From the IMG/VR virus record IMGVR_UViG_2913147268_000005: 64,000 nt of DNA; one strand, given 5' to 3'. Origin of the DNA: a virus. Its lineage: Duplodnaviria; Heunggongvirae; Uroviricota; Caudoviricetes. Position numbers: made by a program. Shown in pieces: positions 39,684 to 45,600 of the stretch. Within the stretch, counting starts at the first letter, position 1. Each line of letters opens with the position of its first letter.

Positions 39684-42600
39684 TCAGCGTATCGCTCTCT
39701 ATCGCTCTCTTTCTGAAGCCGGTTCAGATCGGCTTCCATTTGTGCGATACGGCGGGAGACTTTTTCGGAACGACTGCCGAAGTTCATCCGGCGGAGTTTA
39801 TCCAGCTGCGCCTGCAGATGGTCTATTTCGCGTTCACGCTCGTTCAGCTTTTCCAGCAGGGCACGGTTCAGCGCCTCCTGTTCGGCAAGGAGACGTTTCA
39901 GTGCATTGATATCGTCAGGAAGTGAGCTGCTCATACCGGGTATATTACCAGGCTCATTCAGCGTCGACCAGGATAAAGAGGCTTACAACATAGTCAGGGA
40001 CGTAAGCAGTCTTTTAGGCTGCCGCCAGTCGATACCTTCAAGGAGCATCGCCAGCTGTGCCGGTGTGAGGAACACTTTGCCATCCCGGGCTGACGGCCAG
40101 GCGAAGCGGCCGCGCTCCAGCCGTTTGGTCAGCAGACACAGTCCATCGCCGGTAGACCAGAGGAGCTTTACCTGACTGCCATTACGCCCACGGAAGATAA
40201 AAACGTGACCTGACATCGGATCGTCTTTCAGCGTCGTCTGCACCTTTGCCGCCAGGCCGTTGAAGCCGTTTCTCATATCGGTGATGCCAGCGACCAGCCA
40301 GATCTTTGTCCCTGATGGGGCACTGTTGCAAATAGTCGGTGGTGATAAACTTATCATCCCCTTTTGCTGATATCTGAGTGCACTGCCACACAAGTGGCAG
40401 GTGTAGTGAGCATAAGGTGCGGCCTGTACAGTACGGGCGCCCGTCAGACGTCCGTTGCTATCAAGAGCGAGAAAGGATTTTGCGTACATAGTATATGTTC
40501 CTTACCGTCAGACGACACGCAGGCAACAGCCGTCCCGGTACGGGCAGCGTGGTCAGGTGTGAATGGCGGTTTCAGTTCAGTCTCATAAGGGAAAATCAGT
40601 GTGGTGGCCATGAACACGTCATCACACTGAAGTCAGATAACTCGTCTGTCTGGCTCAGCCACGACTGCAGCCAAAGTTGCGCTCACCGGTGCAGTGAGCT
40701 TTGGTATGCTCCTTCGCCAGATAGTCAGCACGTTCCAGCACTTGCTGAAAGCCGGTGTCATCATTACGCGCCAGCCACACCGCCGGCCAGGCCGGAAAAT
40801 GCACCAGCGTGGCATGGCATCCGGCATCCACCCCCAGGGCACTGCACCAGGCCTGTTCAATCATTCCGGCCAGTGATCCCGGAGCGCGGTAATCACCGGC
40901 ACGACACCAGGTATCCCGGTTGACCAGCAGCATCAGATGATAGTGTTTTTTACCTTTGCACTCCCCAAACTCCCGGGCCCAGACGTAATGCAGAGTGGTG
41001 GGATGCACGCGTTTACCTTCCCGATGCTTACGTTTCTGGTAAGCGTCGATTCGGGCTTTCAGGGCATTGATGAAGCGGGATATCACAGCTGCGTCCGTTG
41101 CTGCCGGTACATCCGGGAAACGCAGGTCAACCCGCAATGCCGTCAGGCGGGGATGAACATTCAGTGCGTGCCGCACCGTCTCACGAATACGTTGCTGCCA
41201 GAAGGGGTTGTATTTGTAGGTCATGGTTAAATCTCCGTATGGTTCATACGGAATAGCCACGTCGTAAAAAATGCGCAGAGTCCCTGAAGTGACCTCCGGC
41301 AGGGCACTGTCTCAGGCACTCTGTGATAACCCGAACGGTCGTCTCCGGACTGACGGTTGAATTTTCAGCGTTGTTTTTTTAATGTAAAAAACCGGTTACG
41401 GGTAAGGCTGTGAGGAGGGAGTGATGGTGATACGCAAAAAGAAGTGCAGGGACTGTGGAAACGCGATTACTCATAATACAGTGTGTTGCCCGTATTGTGG
41501 TTCTGTCGACCCCTTCGGCTATTACCGGAATACAGACCGTATCGTTACCATACTGCTGGCACTGATTATTGTGGTCCTGCTGACTACTGTCAGCGTCAGT
41601 GTGTATATACTGTGTAGCTGGTGAGATAACGGTTCATGTATCCCCTGAGCTGACAGTGTACCGGGTATATTAAGCGTAACCGACAGGTTCTCCTTCATAC
41701 CATATTAAATTTTTCCAGGTATTGCCGCTGCCTTATTTCGTCCCATACAGGAAAACTCGTCTGGGTTTCTGACAAATACGCGAAACTCACAGCCCCTCAA
41801 TATCAACCACACGCCGTAAGCCGGTAATACCTGAAAATCAGTCTATTACCGCCCGCGCCTCCGTTACCGAACGCTCAGGTGACAAGACTGAAGCCAGCAC
41901 GCACTCGTAAAATTTGCGGTCAGTTCTGCCAGCCGGTTGTCAACGGCAGAGTTAAAGGCTTCCAGCTCCGCAAGGGTAAGTTTATAACGCGTGTGGGAAT
42001 TCACTTTTCCCGCGTCTCCTGACGTATTACGGGCTGCCACTTACCTGGTGTCCCGCAATACAGCCTTAGTGTTCCGTTATCGGGGATCCGGACGCACCGC
42101 AACAACCGGGGAAGTATTTCTGGTTAGAGCAGTGTCAAGAGGGATTTCTCAGCCCCTCACTCACCGGCTCAGTCTCAGGGCAGGAGCATTAATACGCTCA
42201 GTTCATGTCTTATACAGGAATGGGCATAGGGGGAGCTGGCGTGTCACTGCTGATTTTACGCATCAGCGTTCATGTATTTGCACTCTGATACAGAATGCTT
42301 CACAGCGCTCTGTTACCGGAGAGATTTACTCTCTTAGGTTATTCTGGCAAATCCTTTACGTTACTCTCTGATGACTTCTTATATTTATAATACCAATCAG
42401 ACAACCTTATCCCATCGGTGATATCAGTCTCCTGCTCGCCAGGAACGGGCTGACTCACTGTAACCACCTCCGAAAACAACTCTGCAATTATCAGAACGCC
42501 TGCTTCTCTCCCTGTCCTCACGAAAACTATCCCCTCTTTATCGCGCGTGCGTGCGGAAGCATCTTTTCGCACCCCCGTTACTTTATTCGTACCCCTTATA

Positions 42601-45600
42601 ATGGGGTGTTAGCCAGCCAGACCCGGCATGATTACTGCCCCCAGTCGTCCATGATCCGGGGGGTGATGTCACCGGGTCTGGTGGGGCGCTGGTAACCGCT
42701 AATAGGGGTCAGGTCAGGCACTTTTGCCGGGACCGTCTGTAACGTGGATGCCGGTACCTGCTCCCCGTGGTTATCTGCTTAACCCATATACAAGGGAGAC
42801 AGAATGACCGAATCCAGCGATTACGAATCCGTCCAGGTCTTTATCGGCGTTGATGTCGGTAAAGATACGCATCACGCTGTAGCCATTAATCGTTCAGGTA
42901 AACGCCTGTTCGATAAAGCATTACCCAACGACGAAAACAAACTCAGGTCGCTAATATCTGACCTGAAACAACATGGTCAGATACTGCTGGTTGTTGATCA
43001 GCCAGCTACCATCGGTGCGTTACCTGTCGCCGTTGCCCGCTCAGAAGGAGTCCTTGTCGGATACCTCCCTGGACTGGCCATGCGCCGCATAGCCGACTTA
43101 CACGCCGGTGAAGCTAAAACTGATGCTCGTGACGCTGCCATCATTGCCGAAGCTGCCCGTACCCTGCCTCACGCGCTACGCACGCTGAAACTGGCTGACG
43201 AGCAAATCGCCGAACTCTCCATGCTCTGCGGCTTCGATGATGATCTTGCCGCACAGACAACGCAGGCCAGCAACCGTATCCGCGGCCTTCTGACCCAGAT
43301 ACATCCGGCACTGGAGCGCGTTCTCGGTCCGAGACTTGATCACCCGGCGGTACTCGATCTTCTCCAGCGATATCCCTCACCAGAAAAACTCGCTTCGCTG
43401 GGTGAGAAGAAGCTGGCAGCCCAGCTCTGCAAACTTGCGCCTCGTCTGGGTAAACGCCTTGCAGCAGACATAGCTCAGGCACTGGCCGAACAAACCGTCG
43501 TCGTTCCCGGCACGAATGCCGCTGCCGTAGTACTGCCACGTCTGGCACTCCAGCTCATCACGCTGCGTAAGCAAAGAGACGAGGTGGCGCTTGCGGTAGA
43601 ACAGCGAGTTCTTGCTCACCCTCTTTACCCGGTCCTGACCAGTATGCCCGGAGTCGGTGTCAGGACCGCAGCCAGACTCCTCACCGAGGTCGCCTGCCGC
43701 GCCTTCGCCTCTGTCGCACATCTCGCTGCTTATGCTGGCCTTGCGCCGGTAACTCGGCGATCCGGCTCGTCAATACGCGGTGAGCATCCCTCGCGACGGG
43801 GTAATAAAGCTCTCAAACGGGCGTTGTTCCTGTCGGCCTTCGCCGCGCTCAGGGATCCGCTCTCCAGGGCTTACTACACCCGCAAAATGAGTCAGGGAAA
43901 ACGACACAATCAGGCGCTTATCGCCCTGGCGAGACGACGCTGCGACGTTCTGTTCGCCATGATGCGCGACGGGACTTTTTATACCCCGCAGGCGTCATAA
44001 CATGCTTGACAACTTAATAGGGGCACCCCCCGGGATTCCGCTACGGCTCTGCCATCGCAATCCCCCCGTTTATCTCCGGACAGCCAGATTCCCGATTATT
44101 TTTTACGTTTCTCCCCGGTTGTTATGCCGGTGAAGGTGGCGCGCTGTTTTCATGACCACACCGGCTGGTTTAACAACATCCGGAGGAACATTCTCATGGC
44201 TACCCCAGTTTCGCTGATGGATGACCAGATGGTCGACATGGCGTTTATCACTCAACTGACCGGCTTAACCGATAAGTGGTTTTACAAACTCATCAAAGTT
44301 GGGGGCTTTCCTGCCCCCATCAAAATGGGGCGCAGCTCCCGCTGGCTGAAAAGTGAAGTGGAAGCCTGGCTGCAGGCGCGTATTGCACAGTCCCGTCCGT
44401 AATTTTTAACCACTAACCCTTCGCCCAAAGCAGACGCAATCTCCGGCCTGCCGGCGGCGCTCTGCTGCCTGTTATCCCCCGTGAGGAATATGAAAATGAA
44501 ACAACAGTATCAGACCCGTTACGAGCTGCTCCATGAAAACTACCAGAAATGGCTGACCGGCTTCACCCGGCACGCCGTATCATGGGGCGTGTGTCATCCG
44601 AATATCTACTATTTCCATAATCTGACGCCCGGGTGGGTGTCATTCAATGGCGAAAAACCGGAGATTGCCATCGTTCCCCAGAGTCTGCACCGGCTGATTT
44701 ATGGTCCGGACAAACGGAGCTCCCCGTCCCTGGATGATGATCTGGTGGTGAATTTATGCACCAGCGAACACCTGCTGGTTCATCATCCGATGCTGGAAGG
44801 GATCCTGCTGTCTGAATGTGAGCGCCTGAAGCAACATTCTCTGGCAAACAAACTGATCAGCCTCTTCCGTCAGTTTGGCGGCACGGAGTTACGTCTCAAA
44901 CTGGTCTGGCTCTGCTGGCTTGACTTAATGACCGGAAACAGCCTTGACGACTGGACGAAAAACCTGAAACACAAATCAGAAAAAGATCTGGAGCAATGGA
45001 TCATTGCACGTCAGGGTCAGAGTGAACCACTGACAAATCTGATGGATCAGTACGTGCTTATGGCATACCGTACATCGGTTGATGCCGCTCACAGTTGATG
45101 TCTGATAACCACAGGGCTGGCAGCAGAAAACCAGCCCTGTGGTAAAATACAGTAATAGCGGCGTACATCAGGCACGCCGCTCACTCGTCCACAGATCATA
45201 TACGTCATTATACTGCGCGATAACGGAGGGCTTCAGCACCCGGTCATTTCTGAGCGGGTATGAATACCATTGATGATGCGAAGCAGCCACGGGCAGAAAC
45301 GTTCTTCACAACCAGGTGCCTCCATCTTCACTGCAGGCTGAATGTGCCGGCTTGTTATCCACCAGAAATGGTATGCTCCGGTACATGCATACCCCGGAGA
45401 CTATAAACGCACTGAATCATAGCCTCCCACCTCAGCAGGAGGCAGTCAGCTTTCAGGCGGAAAAACGTTGCAGTTAAAGATCGTGAGAATCGCTGTTTCG
45501 TTGCATAGCAACCCGAACAGTTGTAGTTGAAACATTTTACCTGCATCAGCACATGGTCAGGCGCCGTCTGTATGGCGTGGAATACTGATGTTTCGGCTGA

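Follow-up and report, generated by a model that had tools for sequence, protein, structure and literature searches.

The window analysed here is a stretch of 64,000 nucleotides (nt) from a Caudoviricetes virus (IMG/VR record IMGVR_UViG_2913147268_000005), and it holds one ordinary intact copy of the catalogued Escherichia coli insertion sequence (IS) ISEc20, an element of the IS110 family. The non-coding left end (LE) of this copy very probably encodes a bridge RNA of the IS621 type, which is the best explanation for the predicted RNA anatomy, the element boundaries and a natural target of seven C residues (C7). The element and the mechanism are already known. A preliminary description of the window had flagged ~1.2 kb without open reading frames (ORFs) in front of an IS110-family transposase as a candidate bridge-RNA region, and it was right in kind and wrong in extent: a structured RNA with bridge anatomy does lie just 5' of the recombinase gene, but it extends over ~42591-42767 and not over 1.2 kb.

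The recombinase gene (42804-44000, + strand) is an intact ORF of 398 amino acids (aa) that matches the Pfam families DEDD_Tnp_IS110 (PF01548, 6.8e-49) and Transposase_20 (PF02371, 2.9e-21) and the NCBIfam model NF033542, 'IS110 family RNA-guided transposase' (236 bits, cut-off 140). A megablast search with 41200-44500 against complete E. coli genomes returned hundreds of 100% matches, and in the 100%-identical records RefSeq/PGAP names the coding sequence 'IS110-like element ISEc20 family transposase'. Pfam, NCBIfam and RefSeq thus agree with the transposase family assigned in the preliminary description. In addition, a protein cluster of 4,657 members is 99-100% identical to this recombinase. 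Alignment of the Tnp domain with IS621 (PDB 8wt6, E = 4.6e-14) and with the ISCro4 structure (8.3e-12) placed Ser320 opposite the IS621 catalytic serine. D17, D65, D107 and D110 lie opposite IS621 acidic residues in an N-terminal domain alignment that is weak taken alone, the second acidic position being Asp in ISEc20 vs. Glu in IS621. The protein therefore combines the DEDD/RuvC-like N-terminal domain and the Ser-bearing C-terminal Tnp domain of the IS110 family.

Boundaries of ISEc20 and the DNA beside it

The ends of the element were set from three ISEc20 copies at other loci and the IS-free allele of strain 104. Searching with 42300-44300 returned the same locus, ISEc20 copies elsewhere and empty sites, and the copies in other contexts matched only query positions 273/274 to 1730-1735, corresponding to 42572/3 to 44029-44034 of the window. 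The left junction read CCCC/GTTACTTTATTCG... and the right junction ...CTTAATAGGGGCA/CCCC in all copies, with unrelated DNA outside, and the empty site of the strain 104 allele read ...TTTTCGCA-A-C10-GGGATT..., a plain C run. Because the copies share a CCCC-bounded sequence and the empty allele is C10, the element was placed at ~42577-44029 (+ strand, 1,453 bp) within a C tract, with ends that are ambiguous within the shared CCCC. The left CCCC (42573-42576, +), which stands directly before GTTAC in independent copies, is a target-derived C run that includes the 2-nt core, and the right CCCC (44026-44029, +) includes the core CC. This comparison with an uninterrupted homologous locus, as had been proposed for defining the ends, gave a left boundary at 42573-42577.

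The LE (42577-42803, +) consists of 227 bp of non-coding DNA and aligns from its first bases, with the same GTTAC start and at 72-83% nucleotide identity, in 80 related loci. The right end (RE; 44001-44029, +) has 29 bp and finishes in ...TTGACAACTTAATAGGGGCACCCC. An inverted-repeat search detected no terminal inverted repeats linking the two ISEc20 ends, so the earlier statement to that effect holds, and only a short repeated core flanks the insertion. These features, with an LE much longer than the RE, follow the long-LE, short-RE pattern of the IS110 group (Durrant et al., 2024; PMC11208160). In Shigella flexneri SFBU1023 and E. coli ECMA0423 copies (locus coordinates 2297-2440), the right end read ...ATAGGGGCAC/GTTAC..., and in one Cupriavidus relative the RE likewise passed directly into GTTAC-type sequence with no C run, the next DNA not being its own LE. 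Such RE-to-GTTAC junctions could be donor-like, or could have arisen by insertion beside what is left of a related LE.

The boundary comparison bears directly on the flagged 1.2 kb (41625-42803). Since the IS starts at 42573-42577, ~950 of the 1,179 flagged bp lie outside it, and only 227-231 bp (~20%) belong to the non-coding IS end for which the whole had been taken. The reading in which all of 41625-42803 is IS end, with a bridge RNA anywhere inside, could appeal to its contiguity with the recombinase gene and to the lack of any strongly family-supported ORF. It is already refuted by the boundary comparison and keeps next to no probability: the three copies elsewhere share sequence only from 42573 on, and the IS-free allele keeps 41625-42572 intact. 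Furthermore, of 5,426 complete E. coli genomes, 3,395 carry 41625-42572 with 92-100% identity (at least 80% covered in 2,176), vs. 693 genomes that match at least 80% of 41200-44500 and thus include the IS at this site. The same interval also contains a pseudogene of the Hha/YmoA family.

The 41625-42572 segment is therefore genomic-island DNA present in IS-bearing and IS-free alleles. The description of this DNA as free of ORFs was partly borne out, in that no ORF in it has family support apart from a fragment. That fragment, of the Hha/YmoA family (41864-42040, - strand; 58 aa), matches Pfam HHA at 3.1e-7 over profile positions 14-45 of 57 and is annotated by RefSeq as a pseudogene without its N-terminus. 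The segment also holds a 126-aa ORF (41991-42371, +) and a 77-aa ORF (42339-42572, -; 'hypothetical protein' in RefSeq), neither of which has a match in Pfam, PHROG or NCBIfam; family searches of the neighbouring 126-aa, 77/90-aa and 205-aa ORFs likewise returned nothing. Folding z-scores over 41625-42572 were mostly unremarkable. A long ORF-poor stretch beside an IS110 recombinase need not all be IS end: decayed island DNA with no role in the element makes up four-fifths of this one. The preliminary description had held that its proposal would fall if most of the region lay outside the IS and no structured RNA was detected; the former was found, and the latter was not.

The 77-aa ORF has its GTG start exactly at the IS boundary. 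In the IS-free allele of strain 104 (1540-1812, -) its frame is 13 codons longer, giving 90 aa with no family match; therefore, the annotated start is a by-product of IS insertion. The sole window outside the IS with a folding z near -3 (42274-42450, -; z = -3.0) overlaps this ORF and has no Rfam match.

Predicted structure of the left-end RNA

The bridge RNA is predicted to occupy ~42591-42767 (+ strand, ~177 nt). Its length and ends were assigned by analogy with IS621, the putative start lying ~7 nt after a TAnnnT box as it does there. An IS621-type model, comprising a 5' hairpin and two stem-loops with large internal loops and small upper hairpins, was evaluated on 51 distinct LE sequences of Proteobacteria and Actinobacteria. 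This three-part fold was supported across the set, with 95.0% of cells in standard pairs and changes on both sides in 22 of 41 pairs. The covariation score was 0.297, and it fell to 0.06-0.09, with only 5-9 compensatory pairs, when the partners were slid by 1-3 columns. None of 500 shuffles reached the observed values; the 51 sequences are related, so the shuffles overstate significance, and the slid control, which was clear, is the fairer one.

Most of the covariation is carried by the two basal stems (7 of 15 and 8 of 12 pairs). The target-binding stem-loop (TBL; 42616-42682, +) has a basal helix of 15 pairs, 99% paired and with 7 compensatory, and a perfect 10-bp stem, CCAGACCCGG/CCGGGTCTGG; its small upper stem is invariant and hence gives no covariation signal. 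The donor-binding stem-loop (DBL; 42684-42765, +) has a basal helix of 12 pairs, 97% paired and with 8 compensatory, and an upper stem of five pairs, four of them compensatory. In the 5' stem-loop (42591-42607, +), three of five pairs change on both sides, for example the closing pair A-U / G-C / U-A, and only 77% of cells are paired owing to indels in actinobacterial relatives.

Folding of ~42591-42767 gave a minimum free energy of -82.6 kcal/mol (z = -2.4). Sliding-window z-scores over 41625-42803 reached ~-2 to -2.6 in the RNA region on both strands and are not discriminating. The interval suggested earlier for structure prediction, 42400-42803, includes the RNA and is too wide on the 5' side. 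An unconstrained RNAalifold consensus paired the guide segments with one another, which was read as a by-product of C-run/G-run complementarity.

Guide loops, natural targets and donor ends

In IS621, each loop's 3' side pairs with the top strand, the left target guide has 9 nt and ends on the 2-nt core, and the right target guide has 4 nt and starts on it (PMC11208160, PMC11208158). Once strands have been exchanged, the two handshake bases that follow the right target guide pair with the donor; the left donor guide has 8 nt, and the right donor guide has 9 nt with two bases flipped out (PMC11208158). The internal loop of the ISEc20 TBL (5' side UACUGCCCCCA, 3' side CCGGGGGGUGAU) can be read by the same rules. 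Its 5' side contains the left target guide ACUGCCCCC (42634-42642, +), which repeats the top-strand sequence of left flank and core. On the 3' side, the right target guide GGGG (42658-42661, +) is complementary to the core CC and the first two right-flank bases, CC, and is followed by the candidate handshake guide GGUG (42662-42665, +), which complements the final four bases of the donor ahead of the core, CACC. The handshake role of GGUG is suggested by analogy with IS621 (PMC11208158).

Because the left target guide ends in five C, the other guide is four G and the two overlap on the CC core, a C7 target was predicted. This prediction was compared with natural junctions, ten of them independent ISEc20 sites and the others from relatives. 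Among 65 independent left flanks, C occupied positions -5 to -1 in 40, 61, 63, 59 and 64 sites, respectively; at 53 right junctions, CACCCC of the element was followed by C in 45 and then 47 sites and thereafter by random composition. The resulting C5-IS-CC pattern amounts to C7 and matches the guide prediction exactly. Moreover, variation in the left guide tracks the flank: where U replaces G before the guide C run, a group that includes the ISEc20 variant of E. coli strain 52148, the flank carries T at that position in 7 of 9 sites vs. 13 of 55 (Fisher p = 0.003).

The site in the present window reconstructs to GCA-C7-GGG, and a natural target of about seven C accounts for the landing of ISEc20 in the C tract upstream of alpA. 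Positions 42656-42665 (CCGGGGGGTG) are 100% complementary to the right junction at 44024-44033, a span made up of two G and two C of the flank, the core, and CACC of the donor. On these sequences, the last CC is the best placement of the core: the left target guide then finishes on it, as that of IS621 does, and the C counts at the junctions agree. A 'core = CA' register, with left target guide CUGCCCCCA and left donor guide AUAGGGG+C, had been derived from IS621 linker lengths; it was rejected, since independent left flanks have no CA before CCCCGTTAC.

In the DBL loop, the putative left donor guide AUAGGGGU (42702-42709, +) stands on the 5' side and is the same as RE positions 44017-44024 (ATAGGGGC), with a possible wobble between its last U and bottom-strand G. 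The covariation of guide position 7 with the RE was examined in 67 loci, of which 65 covaried (G/G in 52, A/A in 13) and two were mismatched. Loci with the A state belong to Duganella-group Proteobacteria and to several genera of Actinobacteria. The putative right donor guide GUAACGUGG (42739-42747, +) is complementary to CC+GTTAC with one or two bases looped out, and both it and GTTAC are invariant in 51 of 51 aligned sequences. From this complementarity, pairing of the right donor guide with the core and first LE bases is plausible.

By analogy with IS621, ISEc20 would excise as a circle in which the RE-LE junction, ...ATAGGGGCACC-CC-GTTAC..., serves as the donor; the circle junction is expected to read ...ATAGGGGCACCCCGTTACTTT.... 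The recombinase would bind the bridge RNA. In its target loop, ACUGCCCCC would pair with the bottom strand and GGGG with the top strand of a chromosomal site of the type (T)GCCC-CC-CC. In its donor loop, AUAGGGGU would pair with the RE bottom strand and GUAACGUGG with the LE top strand of the junction. Strand exchange would then take place at the CC core, after which GGUG could pair with the incoming donor CACC. Transcription of the RNA, its binding by the recombinase and the chemistry are presumed here to follow IS621.

The structured LE might instead be a leader that governs recombinase expression through translational occlusion or attenuation and contains no guide, the loop matches being by-products of G/C low complexity. 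Consistent with such a leader, the RNAalifold consensus has the C run paired to the G run inside the loops, and likewise the two donor guide regions to each other, so that the loops may be closed helices; the guides are nearly invariant and offer few covariation tests, and short chance repeats are frequent. However, two variable loop positions track the DNA (65 of 67 loci in two phyla for one, p = 0.003 for the other), and the C7 prediction matches the junction counts exactly. The architecture and the loop sides also follow IS621, in which experiments have established guide function (PMC11208160, PMC11208158). Furthermore, folding showed that a third, downstream hairpin covers the ribosome-binding site, and this hairpin could serve as a leader separately. 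We therefore consider a leader without guides very unlikely and retain the bridge RNA assignment.

Several observations nevertheless weigh against that assignment. Natural sites agree poorly with the left target guide at its distal positions, and the site in the window itself has CA vs. the predicted UG. The right donor guide and most of both target guides do not vary in the clade, so that complementarity, and not covariation, underlies the pairing proposed for them. C and G runs make short chance matches easy and leave the core register ambiguous. The left donor guide extends into a 9-nt identity (42700-42708 = 44015-44023), but 9-nt direct repeats are common in this 1.5 kb and a lone repeat means little. 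Its match ends 4-5 nt before the crossover, unlike that of IS621, which makes this assignment less secure. Rfam 15 gave no match in the region either at gathering thresholds over the whole window or at E up to 10 over 41400-44300, where only chance-level miRNA and sRNA matches appeared; this result is uninformative, since the presence of a bridge-RNA model in Rfam is not established. A promoter scan found no promoter-like site on the + strand and no terminator for the RNA, and the spacer of the candidate junction promoter described below (20-21 nt) is too long for canonical sigma-70.

The departures from IS621 may reflect a variant geometry in the ISEc20/ISBma3 clade, with a shifted left donor guide, four bases common to donor and target (CC plus the CC core) and a 4-nt handshake, GGUG:CACC, in which GGUG may take the core-proximal donor bases after strand exchange. 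This arrangement would be adapted to the C7 homopolymer and conserved almost without change in elements of Enterobacteriaceae, Burkholderiales and Microbacteriaceae. We regard this geometry as a tentative suggestion that is rather doubtful at present. If it is correct, a left donor guide need not stand at one set distance from the cleavage site, and a low-complexity sequence can be the settled target of a bridge recombinase. Relative to IS621, the shift of the guide, the handshake complement of 4 nt and the homopolymer target amount to modest variation.

Promoter candidates, relatives and the wider window

In IS621, the sequences in PMC11208160 place a TATTAT box at LE positions 3-8, the start of the 177-nt RNA at LE +15 and a promoter spacer of 17 nt. 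In ISEc20, a candidate -10 box of the TAnnnT type, TACTTT (42579-42584, +), overlaps the right donor arm and is kept as TAC[TC][TA]T in the clade, and a candidate -35 box, TTGACA (44006-44011, +), lies in the RE, where TTGAC[A/G] is kept across the clade. By analogy with IS621, the two may form a promoter that is rebuilt across the RE-LE junction in the circle, although this is uncertain. TATAAT at 42597-42602 was rejected as a -10 box: it lies in a hairpin loop with a covarying stem and has no -35 box, and relatives have GATAAT, GATCCT or longer loops at this place. It was kept only as a possible secondary start in E. coli, which would lie near 42609.

Because the -35 box is separated from the LE, the integrated copy may be silent. 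The copy might even be an inactive fossil, its insertion being shared by hundreds of genomes through vertical inheritance only. The 693 genomes with the exact insertion fit a single old event, the parting of the -35 box from the LE in the integrated state means that the RNA is perhaps not made, and 42556-42561, the expected place of a -35 box, is unlike one. However, the ORF is intact and all catalytic residues are aligned, and up to 11-12 matching places were counted per genome (counts that include flank matches). In addition, Shigella flexneri SFBU1023 has five copies that are 98-99% identical, at no fewer than four sites with different flanks. The near identity of these copies at different sites indicates recent movement of the family, and a fossil is thus considered unlikely.

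ISEc20 belongs to the same group as IS621 and would work in the same way. Both have a DEDD/RuvC-like and Ser-Tnp recombinase, a long LE and a short RE without terminal inverted repeats, and an RNA of ~177 nt (predicted in ISEc20) in which a target loop and a donor loop follow a 5' hairpin. As read here, ISEc20 would also have the left target guide of 9 nt ending at a 2-nt core, the right target guide of 4 nt and the discontiguous type of right donor guide known from IS621. In each the -10 box (a candidate in ISEc20) overlaps the right donor arm, the RNA starts, or in ISEc20 would start, near LE +15, and ATA...TAT-type bases flank the donor. In contrast, the recombinase has 398 aa vs. 326 aa in IS621, with significant alignment over the Tnp domain only, the core is CC vs. 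CT, and the target is a C7 homopolymer vs. a mixed 11-mer. The left donor guide of ISEc20 matches ATAGGGGC and ends 4-5 nt before the core, whereas that of IS621 reaches the first core base. Moreover, the donor complement after the right target guide has 4 nt (GGUG:CACC) vs. 2 nt, and the -35/-10 spacer 20 nt vs. 17 nt.

Relatives were collected by scanning one genome per species, which gave the 80 loci; they come from Proteobacteria (Enterobacteriaceae, Burkholderiales and others) and also from Actinobacteria (Microbacteriaceae). The nearest recombinase clade is 74-82% identical and includes ISBma3, whose type is ~80% identical to ISEc20, and there are thousands of relatives in all. The RE of relatives reads TTGAC[A/G]...[C/A]ATAGGG[G/A]CACCCC. 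ISSfl4 and ISBma3, IS110-group elements of ISfinder and the closest relatives, have the same guides as ISEc20, the same CCCC/GTTAC...ATAGGGGCACCCC ends and C-run targets, and differ in compensatory stem substitutions; the 5' hairpin is longer in the actinobacterial relatives. The guides of relatives show minor variants, with U or C before the C run, or GGGA replacing GGGG. Nearly identical guide loops and C-run targets thus occur in elements of both Proteobacteria and Actinobacteria, with recombinases 74-82% identical, and these sequences point to transfer between phyla with the target specificity kept fixed.

The IS1111 group has the same recombinase family as ISEc20. Its choice of target and donor is reportedly RNA-guided, through the seekRNA of Siddiquee et al. 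2024. ISEc20 differs from this group in its 29-bp RE and in the location of its RNA in the LE, whereas in IS1111 elements a long RE holds the RNA and there are subterminal inverted repeats of 7-17 bp (PMC11208160). Supplementary Table 5 of the same study lists the cluster 'ISEc20;ISSfl4' in the IS110 group with a predicted bridge RNA in the LE. In Supplementary Table 1 of PMC11208160 ('IS621 sequences'), the 'Donor' and 'Target' rows appear to be swapped, 'Target' being the RE-LE junction (...ACAGTATCTTGTATTATCCC...) and 'Donor' the genomic site ATCAGGCCTAC, which matters for copying. The literature on ISEc20 and ISBma3 yielded element lists only and no study of their RNA. With ISEc20 catalogued, its NCBI family already named 'RNA-guided transposase' and its bridge RNA already predicted, the present analysis carries little weight beyond correct annotation; its additions are the element and RNA coordinates, the four-guide reading, the natural target of ~C7 and the shifted register of the left donor guide.

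The insertion lies inside a C run ~170 bp upstream of alpA. On one side of it stands a YagK/YfjJ-family gene (40655-41260, -) and on the other the AlpA-family gene (44196-44402, +), the two neighbours named in the preliminary description. One NCBI protein of 530 aa has a Phage_AlpA Pfam match as well as 100% identity with the ISEc20 recombinase across 98% of the query; in some assembly, a gene call apparently ran on from the IS into alpA. The DNA just upstream of the YfjJ-like gene (38536-40489) is a patchwork of IS pieces. It contains an IS21-family istA (38536-39558, -; 340 aa, the same length as the IS100 istA annotated by RefSeq in strain SK1144) and two ORFs, 39677-39934 and 39983-40489, whose translations resemble IS66-family proteins.

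The island that bears ISEc20 shares the window with a tRNA-Ser(CGA) gene ~19 kb away (63020-63109, -; found by Rfam at the gathering threshold and by ARAGORN), which is a possible integration site of the island. Rfam also identified a sok antitoxin RNA (51940-52115, -; 120.5 bits) and DicF (58543-58594, +; 76.7 bits). Next to the island segment described above, a 67-aa ORF (41421-41624, +) has a CxxC...CxxC zinc-ribbon start and a hydrophobic tail. Its matches are weak only (PHROG unknown-function families at 1.6e-5, Pfam zf-ChsH2 below threshold). In alleles with the IS and in those without, this ORF is conserved and annotated.

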